The position numbers and the translations under genes are program-made. A model generated the notes under the pieces. The model ran no database searches. It was given only the letters and a program-made list of their open reading frames with translations, and was not told where the DNA came from. DNA of 27,295 nt from a virus. The first letter of the stretch is position 1. The number at the start of each line of letters is the position of its first letter. Positions 1,717 to 20,038 of this stretch are shown here, piece by piece. The stretch lies in UHGV virus genome UHGV-0068847; one strand, given 5' to 3'.

Positions 1717-2193
1717 TTAGTCCTTCACAAAGATAATCCAGTGGGTTTTGTCGTTCTTCCCGGTACGCTGACCAATTGCAGGTTTCACATCTGTAAGAGC
1801 CAGAATCTGGCTAACTGGGATTTGTGTTTCGTTCCATTTGAAAATAAGCACGCCGCGTGGCCACAGCACCCGAAACGCTTCTTTGAAACCGGCGCGCAAA
1901 TCAGAACGCCACGTTTTTTTGTTCAATCGCCCGTACTTTTTACCCATCCAGGCAGACTGGCCCACGCGTTCCAGGTGCGGCGGGTCAAACACCACAACCG
2001 GAAAAGAAGAATCAGCGAACGGCAATGAACGAAAGTCGGCAATCAGGTCTGGACTGATAACCAGGCGGCGACCGTCGCACAGTTCGTGCTCTTCGGCGCG
2101 GATATCAGTGAACACGGCGCGGGTGTCCTGCTTGTTGAACCAGAACATGCGGGAGCCACAACACACATCCAAAATTATTTGCTCTGCCATCAT
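1717..2193 (-). CDS. Small DNA methyltransferase (N6-adenine or N4-cytosine type, DPPH motif)
   Basis: Translation contains DVCCGS (motif I-like) and VVFDPPH (motif IV DPP[YH]); start ATG at 2193 overlaps the upstream stop (ATGA) and follows GAAGGGGGA; ORF track extends to 2238. Confidence 0.6.
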   Translation of the reverse strand: MMAEQIILDVCCGSRMFWFNKQDTRAVFTDIRAEEHELCDGRRLVISPDLIADFRSLPFADSSFPVVVFDPPHLERVGQSAWMGKKYGRLNKKTWRSDLRAGFKEAFRVLWPRGVLIFKWNETQIPVSQILALTDVKPAIGQRTGKNDKTHWIIFVKD

Positions 2194-2660
2194 TCCCCCT
2201 TCACGCCAATGCCAGCGGCGCGGATTGCGTCGGCACATTCTTCCAGTGCAAAGTTATATTTATCAGAAACTAGCCCGTAACCTTTCGGGTACGGCGTCGG
2301 CAGCGTCACGGTCCGCGCCACCAGTTCTGCTATGCGCTTCTCTGCAATTTCCAGCTCATCCAGCAGCGCCAGCACAGTGGCAGGGTTAGCGGCGGCGATG
2401 AATTCTGCGTTGCGTTTGGCTGTCTCATCCCAAGCCATGTGGTAATCGTGATCCAACTCTTCGTGAATGCACGCTGCTGTGGAATTGGTCATGTCGAGCA
2501 ATGACTCGCTACCGACGTAAACCGCGTATGAGTGGTATCCAGACGCTCTGTCTTCACCCTCGCCGTATTCACCGTCAGTTTCGACAACATCGGACCACCA
2601 TTCGCCCTGGGTGGCTTTCTCTGCTGTTTGGCGCAGCGCCTGTTTGTTGAGTGCTGTCAT
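2190..2660 (-). CDS. Ead/Ea22-like early protein
   Basis: 156-aa acidic protein with NPATVLALLDELE-type C-terminal region recalled from Ea22-like proteins of lambdoid phages; ATGA-coupled to neighbours. Confidence 0.5.
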   Translation of the reverse strand: MTALNKQALRQTAEKATQGEWWSDVVETDGEYGEGEDRASGYHSYAVYVGSESLLDMTNSTAACIHEELDHDYHMAWDETAKRNAEFIAAANPATVLALLDELEIAEKRIAELVARTVTLPTPYPKGYGLVSDKYNFALEECADAIRAAGIGVKGE

Positions 2661-3733
2661 TGGGCTGCCTCCATTGCGAATGTCCCTGCTGTGATAGCCA
2701 TTGCAAGCCTTTGTGCTGCAGCTTTCTGTGCCGGAACGCTGGCAATTACCGTGGCTCTTTCTTTGCTGGCATCAGCACAAACACCATCCCATGAAGAGAT
2801 AAGGAAGAAGTCTTCCAGCTCGGTCATTGTGGCTTTTGTTACCAGTTCTTCGATCATCTGCACGATGATATGCGCAGGGCGACGCCTCAGTAGTTCCTGG
2901 ACTGCATAGCCAAACGCATTGATCATCACCGCATGGAATTGGATGTAATCTCGCTTGTATTCAGCTGGTGATACACCGTGTCGGATACCATCAATAGCCG
3001 TCAGCTTCAGCCACGCTTCCCAAAGGTCATAAATATCGCCAGTAGACAGCGCATCGTCCCCGTTACCCGCGAATTTAGCAGTTGCATCACCAACGGCCTT
3101 AAAACTAATCCAGAGGTCACTTTTTGCCGGAACCACGCTGTGTTCAAAATCGGTGATCTCGGAGAACACTGAGTGAGTGGAGAGGAATGACACCATTGTC
3201 TGGGCAACCTGATCCCTGCCGTTATAAGCCATATTTATTGCTGCAGAAGGCTTAGATACGTTGTTATTGATATCAGAGAAAAATTGCTGGCGTGTCTTCA
3301 GTGGTAGTTGCAGAGTCATCATCAAAGGTACAAACAGGGGTGTATCGTATTCTCTGCAGAACATGGTTATACCTGCACCACGATGTTGCCCATCAAAAAG
3401 TTTAATTTCTGCGTCCATTGGGAACCGAACAACGCCTACGTTTGTATTGCCGAACTCTTCAAACTCCACATGTGAAGCACAGTTACCAACCAGTGGTGGG
3501 ATGATGAAAGGCTCCTTATTTTCAGCAGCTGCCACTAGGTATTCGTAAAAATTTTTTACGCGTGATTTATTGAGTTCACGCTGAGAACGCTCAAGCGTGT
3601 GTCCGTAATTATCAGATGCCAGTACGCGGGATAGGGTTCGTCCTGGAACGTTCATCAAAAGAATAAGCGTATCCCCCTGCAAGCCGCGAGAGGCAGGGAA
3701 CTCGAAGTAATACTCCATACTCGATTTGCTCAT
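2657..3733 (-). CDS. DGQHR-domain protein (DndB-like)
   Basis: 358-aa ORF containing the literal motif LFDGQHRGAGI; no DndA/C/D/E-like partners anywhere in the window; start overlaps the upstream stop. Confidence 0.65.
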   Translation of the reverse strand: MSKSSMEYYFEFPASRGLQGDTLILLMNVPGRTLSRVLASDNYGHTLERSQRELNKSRVKNFYEYLVAAAENKEPFIIPPLVGNCASHVEFEEFGNTNVGVVRFPMDAEIKLFDGQHRGAGITMFCREYDTPLFVPLMMTLQLPLKTRQQFFSDINNNVSKPSAAINMAYNGRDQVAQTMVSFLSTHSVFSEITDFEHSVVPAKSDLWISFKAVGDATAKFAGNGDDALSTGDIYDLWEAWLKLTAIDGIRHGVSPAEYKRDYIQFHAVMINAFGYAVQELLRRRPAHIIVQMIEELVTKATMTELEDFFLISSWDGVCADASKERATVIASVPAQKAAAQRLAMAITAGTFAMEAAQ

Positions 3734-8150: not shown

Positions 8151-8330
8151 GTGCGCGAACTTAATCGAAGGTTCAAAGACAACCGCGGAGTGCCAGTCCG
8201 TGTTATCCGCTGGGAGCCAGAAACACAGCGCGTTATCTATCTGCGTGATGGCTACCCGCACGAATGCTTCAGCCCACTTGAGCATTTCAGGCAAAAGTTC
8301 AGGGAGATAACGGACGATCATGAGCACTAA
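8151..8330 (+). CDS. Candidate small protein (59 aa, GTG start)
   Basis: Hand-translated VRELNRRFKDNRGVPVRVIRWEPETQRVIYLRDGYPHECFSPLEHFRQKFREITDDHEH; GGAGG 9 nt upstream; ends overlapping the next start; competes with the Ser/Arg-rich ORF 7984..8310. Confidence 0.3.
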   Translation: MRELNRRFKDNRGVPVRVIRWEPETQRVIYLRDGYPHECFSPLEHFRQKFREITDDHEH

Positions 8331-9186
8331 ATTAACCGGCTACGTATGGGATGGTTGCGCAGCGTCGGGCATGAAGTTGTCTAGTGTCGCGATCATGGCT
8401 CGCCTTGCTGATTTCAGCAGCGATGAAGGTGTGTGCTGGCCGTCCATTGAAACTATTGCTCGCCAGCTTGGCGCAGGGCCGAGCACTATCAGAACGGCAA
8501 TCGCAAAGCTTGAAAAAGATGGCTGGCTCACGCGCACACAGCGCCGTAATGGTAACCGTAATGCTTCGAACGTGTACCGCCTGAATGTGGCGAAACTTCA
8601 GGCTGCCGCATTTTCTCAACTGTCAGATTCTGACACGTCAAAATCTGACGCATCAAAATTTGACGCCTCAAAAACTGACCCGTCGAAATCTGGCAAAAAC
8701 GGCGGTTTTGACCCGTCAGAATCTGGCGGGGATCCGTCAGTAAAATCAACACAAGATCCACAAGTAACTTCAAAACCCTCTTGTCCGGTTGCGGCGCAAC
8801 CCGACCCTGAGATTGTGATTACTGATCAGGCCAGACAGGTTTTGTCTTACCTGAACCAGACAACTGGTTCACGCTATCAGGTATGCAGCACGTCGCTGGA
8901 GAACATTCGTGCCCGTCTGCGGGAACGGTTCACTGTTGATGATCTGTGCCTTGTGGTGGATTACAAAAACGCTGATTGGCGTGATAGCGAGCAGGCTCAA
9001 TATCTCCGTCCGGCAACTCTGTTTATTCCAAAAAACTTCCCTGGTTACCTGCAAAGCGCGACCAAATGGTCTGCCGCTGGGCGACCTGAGCGCGTTAACG
9101 GTAAATGGACGGCTAACTCAGCCAGCCGCGCAAGCTTCCAAAATGTTGACTACTCACTTCCAGAACATTCGGGGTTCCGCTCATGA
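8320..9186 (+). CDS. Replication initiator-like protein (N-terminal HTH, phage conserved C-terminal domain)
   Basis: N-terminal HTH-like region; central low-complexity S/D/K repeat encoded by the iterons; position after cII-like as in lambda O. Confidence 0.55.
   Translation: MSTKLTGYVWDGCAASGMKLSSVAIMARLADFSSDEGVCWPSIETIARQLGAGPSTIRTAIAKLEKDGWLTRTQRRNGNRNASNVYRLNVAKLQAAAFSQLSDSDTSKSDASKFDASKTDPSKSGKNGGFDPSESGGDPSVKSTQDPQVTSKPSCPVAAQPDPEIVITDQARQVLSYLNQTTGSRYQVCSTSLENIRARLRERFTVDDLCLVVDYKNADWRDSEQAQYLRPATLFIPKNFPGYLQSATKWSAAGRPERVNGKWTANSASRASFQNVDYSLPEHSGFRS
8621..8723. repeat. Tandem 15-bp iterons (putative replication origin) inside the initiator gene
   Basis: TGACACGTCAAAATC, TGACGCATCAAAATT, TGACGCCTCAAAAAC, TGACCCGTCGAAATC in tandem at 8631-8690, with degenerate copies at 8621-8630 and 8709-8723. 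Confidence 0.55.
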
Positions 9187-10064
9187 TGCCAAATAAATAT
9201 TGCCAGTCGCTGGCAGAACTGCGCAGTAAACCAGCTCACGAATTGAAAGAAGTTGGCGATCAGTGGCGAACACCGGATCTGCTGTTTTGGGGGATCAACG
9301 CGCTATTTGGTCCATTAGTTCTGGATTTGTTTGCTGACGACGACAACGCGAAATGCCCGGCATGGTACACCGCCGAAGATAACGCGCTGACCCAGGACTG
9401 GTCTGAACGTCTGGCAGAACTGGGTGGCGCAGGTTATGGCAACCCACCGTATAGCCGTTCGCAGTACCACGAGAAACAGGCGATCACTGGTATGACGCAC
9501 ATCATGAAGTACGCAGCAGCCCAGTGCGAGAAGGGCGGTCGCTATGTATTCCTGATAAAAGCCGCGCCAAGTGAAACGTGGTGGCCGGAAGATGCCGATC
9601 ACATTGTATTCATTCGCGGGCGCATTGGGTTCGATCTGCCAGTGTGGTTTGTACCTGCTGACGAAAAACAGAAGCCCACCAGCGCGTTTTTTGCCGGTGC
9701 CATAGCTGTATTCGATAAGTCATGGCGTGGTGAGCGGTTCAGCTATATCAACCGCACAGAACTGGAGGCAAAAGGTCGGGCATTTATGGCGCTGGCTCAA
9801 TTCGCTGTTGGCAAAGAGCCGACAATTGCAATGCGAGCACCCCAGGAGCCAGTCATACCATCGGAAACTGAGTCACGTATCTGGCCTCTCGAGGTTGGTC
9901 TGGTGTTTAACCAGGTGGAAGGCGTTGACGTATTGAGTGAGGCTCAGCAGAACAAGCTGAAAGCCAACATCAATCAACTCTGGCTGGAACGAACGGCCAC
10001 CAGCGAAATTATCACAATTGCGCGTGGTCTTGTCGGCAGCATGCAGGGGGTAACCCATGCGTGA
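9183..10064 (+). CDS. Dam-family DNA N6-adenine methyltransferase
   Basis: NPPY catalytic motif (GYGNPPYSRS) and phage Dam-like N-terminal region (WRTPDLLFWGINALFGP). Confidence 0.8.
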   Translation: MMPNKYCQSLAELRSKPAHELKEVGDQWRTPDLLFWGINALFGPLVLDLFADDDNAKCPAWYTAEDNALTQDWSERLAELGGAGYGNPPYSRSQYHEKQAITGMTHIMKYAAAQCEKGGRYVFLIKAAPSETWWPEDADHIVFIRGRIGFDLPVWFVPADEKQKPTSAFFAGAIAVFDKSWRGERFSYINRTELEAKGRAFMALAQFAVGKEPTIAMRAPQEPVIPSETESRIWPLEVGLVFNQVEGVDVLSEAQQNKLKANINQLWLERTATSEIITIARGLVGSMQGVTHA

Positions 10065-11946
10065 GATTATCGTTGATAACTTTGCTGGTGGCGGTGGCGC
10101 ATCAACGGGTATTGAACTGGCGATCGGACGCAGCGTGGATATTGCGATCAACCACGACGAAAACGCCATTGCGATGCACAAGACGAATCACCCGGAAACA
10201 CTGCATTACTGCGAATCCGTATTTGACGTGGATCCGGTAGCCGCCACCGGAGGTAATCCTGTCGGCCTGGCATGGTTTAGCCCGGACTGCCGACACTTCT
10301 CGAAGGCAAAAGGCGCCAAGCCTGTGAAAAAAGAGATACGCGGTCTGGCCTGGATTGTTCTGCGTTGGGCACTGGCAAAGCGACCGCGCGTGATGATGCT
10401 GGAGAACGTGGAAGAGTTCAAAACGTGGGGACCGCTATTACCAGCTGAGCCACAAAATCCCAATCTGGTGGGGGATGATTTGGCTGCATTTGTTGGCCCA
10501 GTTATACCGCCTTATGATGCGCAGCGTCCGGATCCGGCACGAGCTGGTGAAACATTTGAGGCATTTGTCGGCATGCTATCCACTGGTATTCCTGCTGATC
10601 ACCCGGCACTGGCTGAGGTTTGTGAGTTTCTGTCTATCGAAAGAGGTAGCGAGCAGGCGCAAAAGCTGGTGGATGGGCTTGGATATGATGTTGATTATCG
10701 CGAACTACGCGCGTGTGATTACGGCGCGCCGACGATCCGCAAACGCTTCTTCATGGTTATGCGCTGCGATGGCTGCCCAATCCAGTGGCCTGCAGTTACC
10801 CATGGGGATCCTAAGTCTCTGGAGGTGCAGAGCGGCAGGCTGATGCCATGGCGTACCGCTGCGGAATGTATCGACTGGAATGTTCCGGCCCTGTCCATCT
10901 TCGACCGCAAAAAAACGCTGGCGGAGAACACGCTGAAGCGGATCGCGCGCGGCATACAGCGCTTTGTTATCGAAAGTGCGTCGCCGTTTATCGTGAAGTG
11001 CAATCACACCAGCACCAAAACGAGTTACGACTGTTTCCGTGGTCAGAAGCTGGACGAGCCTTTGCAAACTATTACTAAAACCCACGGTTACGCGTTAGCT
11101 GTTCCACACCTGACAAAATTCCGCACTGGGGCAACCGGGCAGCCCGTTACCGAACCTGTCCCGACGGTAACCGCTGGCACGTCAAAACGCCCGGGTGGGA
11201 ATGGGCATGCACTCGGGATTGTTGAGGCTGCACTGACGCCATTCCTGGCGGGTAATGGTGGTAGTGAATACCAGGCTAAACCGCGCCCGCTGGATAAACC
11301 TGCTCATACCATTATGAAGCAATCCCGCGCCTGTCTTGTTGCGCCAGTGATAGCCCGCCAGTTTGGGGCCAGCGTCGGCCACCGGGCAGACGAACCGAGC
11401 GCCACAATTACAGCTGGTGGTGGAGGTAAATCACAATTGGTGGGCGCGTTTCTGGCTAAACACTACGGCGGTAACTATACGGGACCGGGTGTCAGTATGG
11501 ATGAACCCGCACACTCAGTGACCACTGTCGATCATCATGCGGTTGTTGCCTCTCATTTGGTGAAACTGCGTGGAACATGCCGCGACGGGCAACGTCTTGA
11601 TGTGCCCATGCCAACAATCACCTCTGGTGGCCAACACGTGGGTGAGGTACGCACATTTCTCGAGACGTATTGCGGGGAAAGTGACGATGAATGGCTGGTA
11701 ACGATCGATGGGGTTAAATACCAGATCGTTGATATCGGAATGCGCATGTTGCAGCCGCATGAACTCTACAAAGCGCAGGGCTTCCCGGATGGATACGTTA
11801 TTGATCAGGACTACCGTGGAAATCGCTATGCAAAAGATAAGCAGGTAGCCCGCTGTGGTAATGCGGTACCACCACCATTCGCCAGGGCGCTGGTGGAGGC
11901 AAATCTTCCGGAACTGTGTGCAGTGCAACATCAGGAGGTGGCATGA
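10057..11946 (+). CDS. DNA cytosine-5 methyltransferase (629 aa)
   Basis: Motif I FAGGGG, ENV, QxRxR-like IRKRFF, GNAV; catalytic Cys lies in SPDCRHFS instead of canonical PCQ; start overlaps the Dam stop. Confidence 0.8.
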   Translation: MREIIVDNFAGGGGASTGIELAIGRSVDIAINHDENAIAMHKTNHPETLHYCESVFDVDPVAATGGNPVGLAWFSPDCRHFSKAKGAKPVKKEIRGLAWIVLRWALAKRPRVMMLENVEEFKTWGPLLPAEPQNPNLVGDDLAAFVGPVIPPYDAQRPDPARAGETFEAFVGMLSTGIPADHPALAEVCEFLSIERGSEQAQKLVDGLGYDVDYRELRACDYGAPTIRKRFFMVMRCDGCPIQWPAVTHGDPKSLEVQSGRLMPWRTAAECIDWNVPALSIFDRKKTLAENTLKRIARGIQRFVIESASPFIVKCNHTSTKTSYDCFRGQKLDEPLQTITKTHGYALAVPHLTKFRTGATGQPVTEPVPTVTAGTSKRPGGNGHALGIVEAALTPFLAGNGGSEYQAKPRPLDKPAHTIMKQSRACLVAPVIARQFGASVGHRADEPSATITAGGGGKSQLVGAFLAKHYGGNYTGPGVSMDEPAHSVTTVDHHAVVASHLVKLRGTCRDGQRLDVPMPTITSGGQHVGEVRTFLETYCGESDDEWLVTIDGVKYQIVDIGMRMLQPHELYKAQGFPDGYVIDQDYRGNRYAKDKQVARCGNAVPPPFARALVEANLPELCAVQHQEVA

Positions 11947-12329
11947 AACTTGTGCTCCCGTTCCCTCCGAGCGTGAACACCTACTGGCGCGCCCCTAACA
12001 AGGGGCCGCTGGCCGGTCGTCACCTCATTAGCGCTGATGGCCGTAAATACCAGAGCGCTGCCTGCGTGGCGATCATTGAGCAATTACGACGTCTCCCGAA
12101 GCCATCGACTGAACTGGCAGCGGTAGAAATCACTCTGTACCCGCCGGATGCGCGCCGCCGGGATATCGATAATTACAACAAAGCCCTGTTTGACGCGCTG
12201 ACGCATGCGGGTGTCTGGGAAGACGACAGCCAGATTAAGCGCATGCTGGTGGAATGGGGACCCGTAGTGCCGAAAGGTCGGGTAGAGATAACGATCAGCA
12301 GATATGAACCGGCGGGTGCAGCCGCCTGA
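11943..12329 (+). CDS. rusA: RusA-type Holliday junction resolvase
   Basis: MKLVLPFPPSVNTYWR start typical of RusA; ATG at 11943 overlaps the upstream stop and follows GGAGGTGG. Confidence 0.8.
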   Translation: MKLVLPFPPSVNTYWRAPNKGPLAGRHLISADGRKYQSAACVAIIEQLRRLPKPSTELAAVEITLYPPDARRRDIDNYNKALFDALTHAGVWEDDSQIKRMLVEWGPVVPKGRVEITISRYEPAGAAA

Positions 12330-16190: not shown

Positions 16191-16651
16191 GTCGACTAAC
16201 AAACATCATCATTACTGTGATCATCTGCATAATCTTATCTCTAGGCTGGGCCGTTAACCACTACCGCGACAACGCGATCACCTACAAAGACCAACGCAAC
16301 AAAGCAACTGAAAAGCTCAGCCTAGCTAACGTTACTATCACCGACATGCAAACCCGCCAGCGCGATGTCGCTGCACTGGATGCCAAATATACGAAGGAGT
16401 TAGCTGATGCGAAAAACACCATTAGCGGTCTACGTGGCGATGTTGAGTCTGGGCGCAAGCAGCTGCGCGTTGCAGCCGCCTGCAATAAAGTGCGTCAAAC
16501 CACCGACACCGCCAGCATGGATGATGCAACCGGCCCCAGACTTACTGACACCGCTCAACGGGATTATTTCACTCTCAGAGAGCGAATAGAAACTGTCACC
16601 AAGCAACTTGCCGGATTACAAGAATATGTCAGTGCGCAGAATTTAAAATGA
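16187..16651 (+). CDS. Rz: Rz i-spanin
   Basis: N-terminal TM ([28 protein letters not shown]) highly similar to lambda Rz; GTG start overlapping the endolysin stop. Confidence 0.8.
16407..16589 (+). CDS. Rz1: Rz1 o-spanin lipoprotein, embedded in Rz in the +1 frame
   Basis: Signal peptide ending in a Cys lipobox-like LGASSC, then a proline-rich segment; nested entirely within Rz. Confidence 0.7.
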
Positions 16652-16711
16652 CTTGTCACCTATTTCGCTGTCTGATTAGTTATTCAATATTAGTTGGCAT
16701 AGCGTTAGTAA

Positions 16712-16957
16712 TTAACTGCAATGGCTATGACTGCAATTAATTATGGCATCAGCTTTGCTTGATGAGGATGATGGATATTTTTCGGATAAGAATTTCTGTA
16801 TGTCTTCAACAGCTTCGATGCTGACTCTAATATTTGTATGGCCATTGTTTTTTAAATAATTAACTGCTTCATCTATAAGGTTGTTTTCTGATAGAAATTT
16901 GATAACAATGGCAAAGTTATCAACGCCGGTTTCGGTTAAAAGTTCACAGTTAGGCAT
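16712..16957 (-). CDS. Cargo ORF of unknown function (81 aa) with C-terminal CSHSHCS tail
   Basis: GGAG 8 nt upstream of ATG; apparently AT-rich segment between Rz and cos; last gene of a three-ORF minus-strand cluster. Confidence 0.4.
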   Translation of the reverse strand: MPNCELLTETGVDNFAIVIKFLSENNLIDEAVNYLKNNGHTNIRVSIEAVEDIQKFLSEKYPSSSSSKADAIINCSHSHCS

Positions 16958-16962
16958 GGTTG

Positions 16963-17211
16963 TTACTCCAGTGATGTAAATGAGATTTTATTTTGGATTG
17001 TTTTTTTATCAGCGTGGGTGATATGTTTGTATGATTTTTGAGGTTGCCTAAACACAAAAGTTGTATTCAAAGTAATCGAGCTAATTAGGGTGGGCCGCTG
17101 GTTTGGTAAGGTCAGGGGATTAACTCTTATTCTATTACCTTTCTGCGTTGCCATAACCATGGGCAGACCCATCGTAATGGTAGTTTTTGAATAGGCCGCT
17201 AATGAATTCAT
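16963..17211 (-). CDS. Possible small ORF (82 aa) in cargo operon
   Basis: ATGA-coupled to the upstream ORF but no clear RBS; composition is only weakly protein-like. Confidence 0.25.
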   Translation of the reverse strand: MNSLAAYSKTTITMGLPMVMATQKGNRIRVNPLTLPNQRPTLISSITLNTTFVFRQPQKSYKHITHADKKTIQNKISFTSLE

Positions 17212-17456
17212 GGCGCATGGTTTTGGGAGGCGATTTGCAAGCAGGCATCTCGGACTTGTATCGCAAGACGAAGCCCTTCCTGAAATCTTGCTGATGCGTT
17301 GGGATCGTTTGCTGAATTTAGATAGACATTAAAAAGCTGCATGATGGTAACGCTATATGCTTGCTTAATAGCATTTTCAGTAATTGTTTCGTCCATCGAG
17401 AATCTCCTCGGTAGCATAGATGACAGGTTTACTTCCGTCTTACCATAGGTCATCAA
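17208..17456 (-). CDS. Cargo ORF of unknown function (82 aa)
   Basis: First ORF of the minus-strand cluster; TTG/ATG start pair; plausible composition. Confidence 0.35.
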   Translation of the reverse strand: MMTYGKTEVNLSSMLPRRFSMDETITENAIKQAYSVTIMQLFNVYLNSANDPNASARFQEGLRLAIQVRDACLQIASQNHAP

Positions 17457-17482
17457 TGGGATTACTTTAATAGGAAAGAAGC

Positions 17483-17767
17483 ATGAGCAAGCCGGACTGG
17501 GAGGTCATCGGGGCGGCGTACTGTGCCGGAGTGATGGCCCTCCGTGAAATTACATCGCAGCACGACATTAGTGAAGGGACAATGCAGAACCATACTAACT
17601 ACTGAGTGAGTGAAACAGACAATATCATCGGTAAGGATGATGGCAATAGCCCCCGACTTACTGACGCCGCTAAACGGGATTATTTCACCCTCAGAGAGCG
17701 AATCAGCACCATCACCGGGCAAGTGAGTTACTTACAGGATTACATCAGGCAGCAATGTTTGAAGTGA
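17483..17767 (+). pseudogene. Chimeric remnant: 40-codon HTH-like fragment, in-frame TGA, then 53-codon Rz C-terminal homolog
   Basis: 17483..17605 encodes MSKPDWEVIGAAYCAGVMALREITSQHDISEGTMQNHTNY after an AGGA RBS; 17606..17767 continues in the same frame and encodes ...[39 protein letters not shown], a divergent second copy of the Rz 3' end. Confidence 0.5.
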
Positions 17768-17801
17768 ATGGCCGCTAGACTTAGCCAGCCATTTTAAAGA
17801 G

Positions 17802-18227
17802 TTAACCAACGGTTAATGTGGAAAGCAAATGCGAAGTTTCCCCAGAGCAGTTAACAGTGGTTTCGTTGTAAGGGAATTCACCCGTATACTCGCTATTTGC
17901 AGGGGGAGTCATTTTGTTAATCAATGCAGCTTCTGCGCGCACCCGATCATCTTTTCCAGTAATAGTAGCGACGGAATAGCAGAGAGTCTCACCGACCATT
18001 AAATGTTCATTCCAGTCACCCAGCCTGTCGTGCGTGGCCACACGGGATCGGACGTTCGATGATTCGCCGATATAAATCAACTTACGAATTTCGAGTGTTG
18101 TCTTGGAGCCATTAGTAACAGCTTTGCATGCGTATACGCAGTAGATTCCTGACTGATCTGGAACGCCACTCTTATTGGCTTCACGCCAATACCCATCAAA
18201 TTGCAGATTAATTGTTTTACCAGTCAT
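17802..18227 (-). CDS. Standalone GIY-YIG nuclease-domain protein (141 aa)
   Basis: SGIYCVY ... LIYIGESSNVRSRVATH ... RVRAEAALINKMTPPAN matches the GIY / YIG / Arg / Glu...Asn motif series. Confidence 0.55.
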   Translation of the reverse strand: MTGKTINLQFDGYWREANKSGVPDQSGIYCVYACKAVTNGSKTTLEIRKLIYIGESSNVRSRVATHDRLGDWNEHLMVGETLCYSVATITGKDDRVRAEAALINKMTPPANSEYTGEFPYNETTVNCSGETSHLLSTLTVG

Positions 18228-18647
18228 TTATAGCTTCTCCTAATTACGCCAACAATAGCGCAATAGGGAAGTGGGGAGATAAATCCAAGTTACAATGAGC
18301 AATCAGTATTTCAATGACTTATGTCATGATTTTCTTATTAATTATAGAAAATATGGGGTTTTTCCATGATGACTGCCATCGTGATAGCAGGTCGCTCAGC
18401 CATTGAACGGTAGGTTGTTTGTTACACAGGCTGCCATTACAGAGGCATTCACTGAGCGCCTGAGATAATGCACAATAACTCCCCCTGTACTGAAGGAAAT
18501 GTGGAAGAGAAAAATTCCATAGGGAGCAGACTAATCTGTAGGGATTGTCTCGATATCATTAGCGCGGTCATCCGGAAAGAATGGTTGATATGTACTGATT
18601 AGTCAAAATCATGCAGAATAGTCACAGTATAAATATGCGAGGCTATC

Positions 18648-19151
18648 ATGAATTATATTTACCAATTAGTGATCTCTGTAGTAGCGGGTGGACTTGGTGC
18701 ATGGATTGCAATGTTATTTGCTTTAAAACGTTTTTATAGTGAAAAGTGGTGGGAGAAGAGAGCAGGGGCCCTTATTGAATTAACTAATGCAATTTATCAG
18801 GTAAAGGTTCTACAAGATTATTATTCTGATTTGAAAGAGTATCAACGATTAGGTCCAGATGAATATCCAAACTTTATCAAATTGAGTGCTGAGAAACTTA
18901 GTAAATTACAAATCTCAGCTGCTGAGGCAAAAGATTTAATAGTAAAATATAGCAATATCGGCCCCTTGCTGGTTACTGAATCAGTATCAAAACTTCTAAC
19001 TGATTATTTGAAACGAGAAGATAAGGTTGACTATGAAGTTAATTTTCAGGGGTTAGATACAGATGATGCTGAAGAACATCTCTTATCGTTGACAAATAAA
19101 CTTCTGGAAGATTTAGTTAAAGAATCAAAAAGCGTTCTTAAAGCAAAGTAA
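18648..19151 (+). CDS. Membrane-anchored protein of unknown function (N-terminal TM plus helical domain)
   Basis: N-terminal hydrophobic helix LVISVVAGGLGAWIAMLFAL; GAGG RBS; TATAAAT -10-like element about 20 nt upstream; coding region looks strongly AT-rich. Confidence 0.5.
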   Translation: MNYIYQLVISVVAGGLGAWIAMLFALKRFYSEKWWEKRAGALIELTNAIYQVKVLQDYYSDLKEYQRLGPDEYPNFIKLSAEKLSKLQISAAEAKDLIVKYSNIGPLLVTESVSKLLTDYLKREDKVDYEVNFQGLDTDDAEEHLLSLTNKLLEDLVKESKSVLKAK

Positions 19152-19289
19152 TCTAGAAGAAAACCTAAGGGCACTAAATGTGATGTGCCCATTTAATTGT
19201 GCATACGCTAAGAGAATCATTATAGGGATAGCTTATAAATCGAATTGTGAAATTGATATTTATTATCGTTTGCGGGTCCTTTCCAGCGA

Positions 19290-19480
19290 TCCGCTCCGTT
19301 ACGGGGCGGCGACCGCGCAGATTCTCGCTATTTATGAAAATTTTCAGGCATTTGCCGTTTCCGTTCTTCTTCTCGCTAATTCATTGTTTTAACTGTAAAC
19401 ACCCCCTGAAAAGAAAGGAAATGATAAGCCTTAAAAACGGCTAAATAGCCAGAGGGCGTTTCCTTTCTCTGTTTTTGTGC
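19290..19480. other. cos site (cosN plus cosB) of lambda-type packaging
   Basis: GGGCGGCGACCG at ~19304-19315 against lambda cosN GGGCGGCGACCT; downstream CTCGCTATTTATGAAAATTTTC and TTTCCGTTCTTCTTC closely match lambda cosB; directly upstream of Nu1. Confidence 0.8.
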
Positions 19481-19492
19481 ATGGAGTGAGCT

Positions 19493-20038
19493 ATGGAGGT
19501 CAACAAAAAGCGTCTTTCTGAAATATTTGGGGTCAGCGTGCGAACCATTCAGAACTGGCAGGATCAGGGAATGCCTGTAGCACGTGGCGGCGGAAAAGGT
19601 AATGAGGTCCTCTATGAATCTTCCGCGGCTATTGAATGGTATTCCGCACGCGACGCGGCGATTGAGAATGAGAAATTACGGAAGGAGGTGGAAGACCTTC
19701 GTCTTGCATCGGAATCCGACCTTCAGCCTGGTACGATTGACTATGAGCGTCATCGCCTCACCCGGGCACAGGCTGACGCCCAGGAACTAAAAAATGCAAA
19801 AGATTCCGCTGAGGTGGTGGAAACCGCATTCTGCACGTTCGTGCTGTCGCGGATGGCCGGAGAAGTAGCCAGCATTCTTGATGGAGTTGCTCTGTCTGTT
19901 CAGCGGCGCTTCCCGGAGCTGGAAAACCGACATATTGATTTCCTCAAGAAGGACATCATTAAAGCCATGAACAAAGCAGCTGCGCTGGATGAAATAATAC
20001 CGGGGTTGCTGAGTGAATATATCGAACAGTCAGGTTAA
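19493..20038 (+). CDS. nu1: Terminase small subunit
   Basis: Near-identical to lambda Nu1 over its length (MEVNKK...EYIEQSG). Confidence 0.95.
   Translation: MEVNKKRLSEIFGVSVRTIQNWQDQGMPVARGGGKGNEVLYESSAAIEWYSARDAAIENEKLRKEVEDLRLASESDLQPGTIDYERHRLTRAQADAQELKNAKDSAEVVETAFCTFVLSRMAGEVASILDGVALSVQRRFPELENRHIDFLKKDIIKAMNKAAALDEIIPGLLSEYIEQSG

Follow-up and report, generated by a model that had tools for sequence, protein, structure and literature searches.

The 27,295-nucleotide stretch of viral DNA analysed here (UHGV virus genome UHGV-0068847; hereafter, the window) carries two overlapping DNA methylase genes, the second of which, open reading frame 2 (ORF2), encodes a 629-residue protein with its catalytic cysteine in the unusual motif SPDCRHFS. 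ORF2 is probably an intact enzyme from a very large C5-cytosine methylase clade, encoded mostly by phages and prophages and characterised by the motif IV pattern S-P-(D/E)-C-x-H-(F/H)-S and by copy-variable units of ~33 residues, and is most likely active on several short or degenerate sequence contexts. By sequence, it is typical of the large orphan C5 methylases of phages, a known family that has been characterised in part, and its gene is already annotated as a DNA cytosine methyltransferase; the activity and specificity of ORF2 itself are inferred. The gene and its principal elements are as follows:

10057..11946, plus strand: ORF2, 629 residues, predicted C5-cytosine DNA methylase belonging to the large 'SP(D/E)C-x-H' clade of phages (PF00145, motifs, homologues, AlphaFold2 and Foldseek).
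10279..10302, plus strand: motif IV, SPDCRHFS, residues 75-82, with Asp77 (GAC, 10285-10287), the catalytic Cys78 (TGC, 10288-10290) and an invariant His80.
11044..11688, plus strand: six tandem units of ~33 residues, consensus QSLDEPLPTITAGGGHHALVAAFLAKYYGGSVG, between motifs VIII and IX (repeats at the protein level).
11743-11790, plus strand: motif IX, RMLQPHELYKAQGFPD, beginning at residue 563, with QGFPD at residue 574.
11854-11877, plus strand: motif X, CGNAVPPP, with GNAVPP from residue 601 and Asn602 retained.

Profile, motif and structural comparisons all place ORF2 among the C5 methylases. The match to PF00145 (73.2 bits, cut-off 22) falls into three stretches divided by a long variable region, and alignment with 3g7u, DNMT1 and HhaI reveals the canonical motif order I, IV, VI, VIII, IX, X, with motif I (FAGGGG) at residue 9, motif VI (ENV) at residue 116 and motif VIII reading APTIRKRFF, with TIRKR at residues 226-230. 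SPDCRHFS aligns with GPPCQGFS of the solved prophage methylase 3g7u, and with SPPCSAFS of CmoX (8yf3); from the alignment with 3g7u it follows that Asp77 replaces the proline normally found before the catalytic cysteine. Thus, ORF2 does not have the Pro-Cys dipeptide of motif IV: Cys78 is aligned with the catalytic cysteine, and Asp77 precedes it. The length of 629 residues and the non-canonical context of the cysteine, both remarked upon in the original prediction, are therefore borne out. In the AlphaFold2 model of the full protein (71 sequences from two clades), the predicted local distance difference test (pLDDT) values of the catalytic domain (residues 1-300) are about 80-98, and a Foldseek search with the model returned C5 methylases only (MET1, DNMT1, 3g7u, HhaI and HaeIII), the top E-values being 1e-8 to 1e-5. 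Between motifs VI and VIII, ORF2 contains an extra segment of ~50-75 residues (10429-10656, plus strand; residues ~125-200), which is missing from proteins of the Paracoccus clade and is modelled with low confidence at residues ~131-160 and with high confidence (mean pLDDT 92-98) at residues ~161-200.

The aspartate before the catalytic cysteine is a property of the whole family. Over 8000 database proteins, from prophages of Citrobacter, Salmonella, Enterobacter, Klebsiella, Kluyvera and E. coli, are closely related to ORF2, and an exhaustive HMMER search with its first 250 residues yielded 5504 clusters at 50% identity with E<1e-3 and 1231 with E<1e-30; SPDC[KRT]HFS is found in nearly all of the top 150 of these 1231 clusters. 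Asp precedes the cysteine in 380 of the 382 retrieved relatives with a readable motif IV, 375 of those 380 also having His at position Cys+2. In our alignment of the family (A1), Cys78, His80, Phe81, Ser82, Lys83, Ala84, Lys85, Gly86, Glu116, Asn117, Val118, Arg228, Arg230, Gly601 and Asn602 do not vary, and Asp77 is almost invariant. Distant relatives with Glu at the Asp77 position include Gordonia phage Zirinka gp60 (SPECTNHS), Cellulophaga phage phi4:1 (SLECTHFS) and dcm5a of Halobacterium phage phiH (GPECTHFS); the phi105 homologue is a member of the SPDC clade. On these alignments, the Asp/Glu-Cys motif is a clade signature under strong constraint. That Asp77 is a one-off mutation or a sequencing artefact is ruled out by the occurrence of the same residue in close and distant homologues. 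We found no discussion of the Asp-Cys motif, or of Pro-Cys exceptions in C5 methylases, in the searchable literature, nor any recent methylome study on point for such prophage enzymes.

Two relatives have unusual gene structures. In the 1113-residue cluster representative P0247, an intein with Hint and Intein_splicing domains interrupts the protein directly after motif IV, from about residue 90. In Halobacterium phage phiH (L089 283-2168), the enzyme is split into two ORFs, dcm5a comprising motifs I to VI with GPECTHFS, and dcm5b comprising six repeat units and motifs IX and X.

Homologues with the same motif have been assayed in vivo. Dziewit and co-workers cloned both 5-methylcytosine (m5C) methylases of the Paracoccus aminophilus JCM 7686 prophages, JCM7686_0772 and JCM7686_2655, in E. 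coli (PMC3925955) and observed partial protection against AluI, BsuRI, EcoRII, HpaII, MspI, Hin6I, NciI, PvuII, TaiI, BglI and others (PMC3925955, Additional file 8). The partly protected sites included AGCT, GGCC, CCGG, GCGC, ACGT and CCWGG, and sites such as CGCG, ACGCGT, CCATGG, GGNNCC and GATC were still cleavable (PMC3925955). A passage of PMC5537653, citing earlier work, lists ARM81mr_p29 and ARM81ld_p31 of Aeromonas phages as m5C methylases with relaxed specificity, and the same paper reports that homologues of ~700 residues are widespread in phage replication modules. ORF2 shares 46.7% identity with ARM81mr_p29 over 100% of the length (motif IV of the latter, SPDCKHFS) and 40.9% with ARM81ld_p31 (SPDCRHFS); the corresponding figure for Phi2LM21_p23 is 38.6% (SPDCKHFS), and Pyei1_p05 also has SPDCKHFS. 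Two P. aminophilus proteins retrieved here, P0344 (703 residues) and P0345 (685 residues), both contain ASPDCKHFS and are 68-69% identical to Pyei1_p05, and P0345 aligns with ORF2 end to end at 37% identity (E 3e-133). JCM7686_0772 and JCM7686_2655 are described with the same relation to Pyei1_p05 in PMC6536676, and P0344 and P0345 are presumably these two enzymes.

As SPDC homologues protect DNA in vivo, the Asp-Cys dipeptide is compatible with cytosine modification in the cell. The original prediction had questioned whether a Pro-to-Asp change next to the catalytic cysteine fits C5 methylation, and had proposed an alignment that would reveal whether PDC is common in active phage enzymes. It is common there (ARM81mr_p29, ARM81ld_p31, P0344/P0345), which counts against an anomaly, and the doubt is further allayed by the 380 of 382 relatives with Asp-Cys and by the protection that enzymes with the same motif afford in E. 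coli. Collectively, family-wide conservation and the published activity of homologues answer the concern about catalytic competence, by homology. The tested homologues display relaxed specificity rather than a single known motif.

Several observations weigh against our interpretation. Phi2LM21_p23 was inactive in E. coli, where it conferred no protection (PMC5537653), and the ARM81 activity evidence is a secondary citation. The protection conferred by the active homologues is only partial, and its readout is restriction, not base chemistry. P0344 and P0345 are equated with the two cloned enzymes by organism and percentage identity, not by locus tag. The score of ORF2 against NCBIfam TIGR00675 (dcm), 53.8 bits, is below the cut-off of 100.65. 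For residues 307-562, AlphaFold2 gives pLDDT below 50, leaving the repeat region without a usable model, and a profile of the 33-residue unit, compared with all PDB sequences, matched no target-recognition domain (TRD) of any C5 methylase.

Some of these points bear on whether the Pro-to-Asp change cripples catalysis, in which case ORF2 would be a methylase that is inactive or in decay, or a pseudo-enzyme that binds DNA. To our knowledge, the Pro-Cys dipeptide is textbook-invariant in C5 methylases, and the inactive Phi2LM21_p23 and the low TIGR00675 score point in the same direction. Nevertheless, we consider loss of activity highly improbable: thousands of homologues, from enterobacteria through to alphaproteobacteria, keep Asp77, Cys78, His80 and the remaining catalytic residues with little or no variation, the ORF is intact, SPDC homologues are protective in vivo, and the P0247 intein occupies a position that is typical of functionally critical sites.

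A second alternative is that ORF2 is active with a different chemistry, adding a non-methyl group or acting on another substrate, with the Asp and His as marks of the altered reaction. The precedent is CmoX, a natural phage DNA cytosine C5-carboxymethyltransferase described in 2025, which contains SPPC and has Arg350 (SpCmoX R350) in place of the motif X Asn (PMC12783734). CmoX uses carboxy-S-adenosylmethionine (Cx-SAM), needs the motif X Arg and travels with cmoA, the gene for Cx-SAM synthase; E. coli supplies Cx-SAM (PMC12783734). Protection assays in E. coli, which makes Cx-SAM, cannot separate 5-methylcytosine from 5-carboxymethylcytosine, CmoX (8yf3) appears as a neighbour of ORF2 in both the structural and the sequence comparisons, and the conserved acidic residue and His beside the nucleophile are unexplained. 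However, the similarity between the two proteins is weak in both sequence and fold, with the FAGGGG motif I in common, and ORF2 has SPDC and Asn602 within GNAVPP where CmoX has SPPC and Arg; because these defining features are absent, we rejected a CmoX-like carboxymethyltransferase. Furthermore, no cmoA, ligase or TET-like/dioxygenase gene was seen among the window ORFs scanned with Pfam, which did not cover all small ORFs, and the published assays were read as m5C by their authors. Altered chemistry in general is very unlikely, and the combination of SPDC with Asn602, with no cmoA, ligase or dioxygenase gene found, makes ordinary methylation dependent on S-adenosylmethionine (SAM) the best-supported chemistry.

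The great length of ORF2 is due to the six tandem units between motifs VIII and IX. They lie at residues 330-361, 362-402, 410-441, 442-475, 480-510 and 512-544, each measuring about 33 residues (32-48). Repeats at the DNA level were sought in ORF2 and none were found, indicating that the units are old. Among homologues at least 75% identical, the array consists of 5, 6, 7 or 8 units and differs by whole internal units, the protein length being 570-594 residues with five units, mostly 605-642 with six, 640-685 with seven and 679-695 with eight; three shorter, probably partial, sequences also have six. Members of the Paracoccus clade carry 5 to 11 units, and units are also present in Zirinka, phiH dcm5b and phi105.

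Multispecific orphan C5 methylases of Bacillus phages SPR, phi3T, rho11s and H2 contain several consecutive modules of ~40 residues between motifs VIII and IX; they protect against several host restriction specificities, and their catalytic motif is the canonical PCQ and their TRDs are dissimilar, with sharply defined targets. We prefer to view the ORF2 units, likewise, as candidate exchangeable recognition modules, because the array is situated at the TRD position, varies in a modular fashion and belongs to a family with published 'relaxed specificity', though a low-specificity platform is about equally likely. The unit may resemble the 'ITLSAYGGG' loop of HhaI.

The platform alternative, in which the 33-residue units form one extended DNA-binding surface of low specificity and relaxed specificity amounts to near non-specific sampling, is a substantial possibility. 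The units within one protein resemble one another, their profile has no detectable similarity to known TRDs, and many unrelated sites (AGCT, GGCC, CCGG, GCGC, ACGT and CCWGG) are partly protected by homologues. Yet modification by these homologues is not random, with the C-containing sites CGCG, ACGCGT, CCATGG and GGNNCC being fully cleavable; close relatives differ in array length by complete units, as exchangeable modules would; and the array lies exactly where, as generally understood, the contiguous TRDs of the Bacillus-phage enzymes are found.

The gene immediately upstream, ORF1, is predicted to encode a methylase of a different class joined to a small helical module:

9183..10064, plus strand: ORF1, 293 residues, predicted Dam-type N6-adenine methylase domain, disordered linker and C-terminal three-helix module (PF05869, TIGR01712, PADLOC MTase_II).
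9228..9782, plus strand: Dam (PF05869) catalytic domain of ORF1, residues 16-200.
9870..10061, plus strand: C-terminal module of ORF1, residues 230-293 (ESRIWPLEV...NQLWLER...), a three-helix bundle in the AlphaFold2 model, also supported by synteny.
L026 3744-4004, L035 3246-3992, L043 1294-2250 and L048 2268-4004: module-carrying ORFs in relatives.

ORF1 matches Pfam Dam (PF05869) with an E-value of 1.2e-43 and TIGR01712 (phage_N6A_met) with 206.2 bits, against an equivalog cut-off of 97.05, and has an NPPY motif (YGNPPYS, 9435-9455). After a disordered linker of ~25 residues, its C-terminus is modelled as a three-helix bundle with pLDDT above 90, corresponding to phrog_16025. The module accompanies the C5 gene even where the Dam domain does not: among the 73 usable IMG/VR loci, whose C5 genes share 53-88% identity with ORF2, 72 have an ORF directly 5' of the C5 gene, overlapping it by 4-8 nucleotides, that matches ORF1, and in about 30 of those loci this ORF has only ~85 residues and its match is confined to the final ~64-85 residues of ORF1. 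In enterobacterial relatives, the position of the module directly ahead of the C5 gene is constant. The module thus occurs alone or fused to various enzymes, namely PF05869 Dam (the window and phiNP), 3'-phosphoadenosine-5'-phosphosulfate (PAPS) reductase plus Dam (L048), MT-A70 (L043) and a Methyltransf_11/25-like domain (L035). These associations suggest that the three-helix module may be specific to this clade and serve the C5 methylase in an accessory or docking role.

Searches with the module itself were largely uninformative. A Pfam scan gave no match, and Foldseek against the PDB nothing significant (best E 1.2). A protein search with only the module as query yielded just 43 close relatives, mostly fragments, and added no architecture. 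No module was detected next to the C5 genes of F116, ARM81 and phi2LM21, which are more distant. In ZF40, there is a weak match (16.7 bits) between the module and the N-terminus of gp21, which is the C5 enzyme itself; gp21 is not mentioned in the ZF40 restriction paper (PMC8989522). The order of replication gene, adenine methylase and large C5 methylase, with overlaps, recurs in phiNP, F116, ZF40 and 72 of the 73 usable IMG/VR loci. The methylase genes that overlap the large SPDC-type C5 gene encode unrelated enzymes in F116 (L005 572-3486), a D12-class Dam (PF02086), and in ZF40 (L006 779-3405), a Methyltransf_25-like protein.

The window itself is a lambdoid prophage, probably of Citrobacter, the genus from which the closest database proteins come. 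Its genes run in the order integrase, early-left genes, cI/cro/cII, replication initiator, two methylases, RusA, antirepressor, DUF968, Q, lysis genes, Nu1/gpA terminase and portal. The genes that flank the methylase pair are as follows:

8320..9186, plus strand: replication initiator gene, lambda O-like (HTH_36 plus Phg_2220_C).
11943..12329, plus strand: RusA Holliday-junction resolvase gene, with a likely ATG start at 11943, preceded by AGGAGGTGG.

The four successive genes rep, ORF1, ORF2 and rusA are joined by stop-to-start overlaps throughout. The overlap between the rep stop and the ORF1 start is ATGA (9183-9186), that between ORF1 and ORF2 comprises 8 nucleotides, ATGCGTGA, at 10057-10064 (ATG 10057-10059, TGA 10062-10064), with GGGGG 6 nucleotides 5' of the ORF2 ATG, and that between ORF2 and rusA is again ATGA (11943-11946). 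The original prediction of overlapping Dam-like and C5 methylase genes, translationally coupled and placed right after the replication gene, agrees with the ORFs at 9183..10064 and 10057..11946 and with these overlaps, and its description of the two enzymes as orphans is consistent with our finding no restriction endonuclease among the scanned window ORFs of at least 90 residues. The phiNP counterpart of the replication initiator gene is annotated as 'replication protein O'.

Other features of the window were noted along the way. The mechanical ORF list starts RusA at GTG 11916; the ATG at 11943, after the Shine-Dalgarno-like AGGAGGTGG, is likelier. Within the replication initiator gene, a 15-nucleotide unit is repeated 4.3 times at 8629-8692 (plus strand; TCTGACGCGTCAAAA), an array that looks like the iteron-type origin that lambdoid phages have inside the O gene. 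The early-left operon includes a third putative DNA methylase (1717-2238, minus strand; 173 residues), which matches PADLOC MTase_II PDLC03288 (3e-71) and, weakly, Methyltransf_11/25, and which resembles the small methylases adjoining the C5 gene in ZF40 (gp20) and L035. The early-left region also encodes a DndB-like protein (2657-3733, minus strand; PF14072, 4.8e-47; PADLOC DndB, 2.4e-39), and no further dnd genes were seen. Between the lysis and terminase genes, an AT-rich stretch (16500-19500; GC content 0.37-0.45, against ~0.53 elsewhere) contains ORFs at 17802-18227 (minus strand) and 18648-19151 (plus strand) that have no Pfam match, and looks like a moron or cargo region.

In our interpretation, ORF2 is transcribed together with the early-right replication genes and coupled in translation to the upstream Dam-type gene. 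With SAM and the conserved Cys78, the enzyme would most likely follow the ordinary mechanism of covalent attack on C6, assisted by Glu116 of ENV, Arg228/Arg230 and Asn602. Methylation of cytosines in several short or degenerate contexts would most likely result in partial protection at many sites, and the replicating phage DNA may thereby be pre-protected from host restriction. The C-terminal three-helix module of ORF1 would act as a clade-specific companion of the C5 enzyme, in a docking or accessory role. Any role of Asp77 and His80 in thiol activation or in deprotonation of C5 is speculation.

These elements can be combined into a bolder hypothesis, which we put forward tentatively and regard as possible rather than probable. 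The acidic-Cys-x-His enzymes may constitute a mechanistically distinct branch of C5 methylases, one that spans enterobacterial prophages, actinophages and haloarchaeal viruses and in which the Asp or Glu and the His activate the thiol or deprotonate C5; the unit array might set programmable short targets, and the three-helix adaptor might tether the C5 enzyme to interchangeable adenine methylases (Dam, MT-A70, Methyltransf_11-like or PAPS-reductase-Dam) in a two-base 'methylation complex'. We found none of the three, branch, programmable array or adaptor, discussed in the searchable literature.

For the window itself, the ORF2 gene carries little weight, being an ordinary example of a family that thousands of enterobacterial prophages carry. 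The SPDC family as a whole is under-studied: it breaks the 'invariant Pro-Cys' rule, appears to give broad but partial protection against restriction and varies in length by whole recognition-like units. If these units are exchangeable specificity modules, they would offer a natural toolkit for engineering cytosine methylation patterns and would explain prophage-dependent 5-methylcytosine signals in the methylomes of Citrobacter, Salmonella and Enterobacter. The three-helix module, which accompanies the C5 gene and is joined to adenine methylases of unrelated kinds, is a lead suggesting that adenine and cytosine methylation may be physically coupled.

Comparison with known systems places the two enzymes as follows. 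Compared with the phage Dam family (PF05869 / TIGR01712), ORF1 matches the full-length domain above the curated cut-offs and contains NPPY, whereas its linker and three-helix module (residues ~205-293) are additions outside the family model. ORF2 has its fold and motif order in common with M.HhaI, M.HaeIII, E. coli Dcm, the CP-933R methylase 3g7u and DNMT1, and keeps the catalytic Cys, the Glu of ENV, the Arg of motif VIII and the Asn of motif X. However, where the canonical enzymes have PCQ, the ORF2 clade has Asp before the Cys, Lys, Arg or Thr at Cys+1 and His at Cys+2, and where they have one TRD, ORF2 has a variable region of ~330 residues composed of tandem units. In relation to the multispecific Bacillus-phage methylases, the position of the array and its whole-unit copy-number variation would fit modular TRDs, but the unit profile matched no solved TRD and AlphaFold2 gave no usable model of the array. 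The closest counterparts are the relaxed-specificity m5C methylases JCM7686_0772, JCM7686_2655, ARM81mr_p29 and ARM81ld_p31, which share with ORF2 full-length homology at 37-47% identity, the SPDC-x-HFS motif IV, the array of 33-residue 'DEPxxTIT...LV' units and the status of orphan genes in or beside phage replication modules. ORF2 has six units, compared with the 5 to 8 detected in the JCM7686/ARM81-type proteins, it has the extra segment between motifs VI and VIII, and it is coupled to a Dam gene with the three-helix module, whereas no such module was detected next to the ARM81, phi2LM21 and Pyei1 genes.

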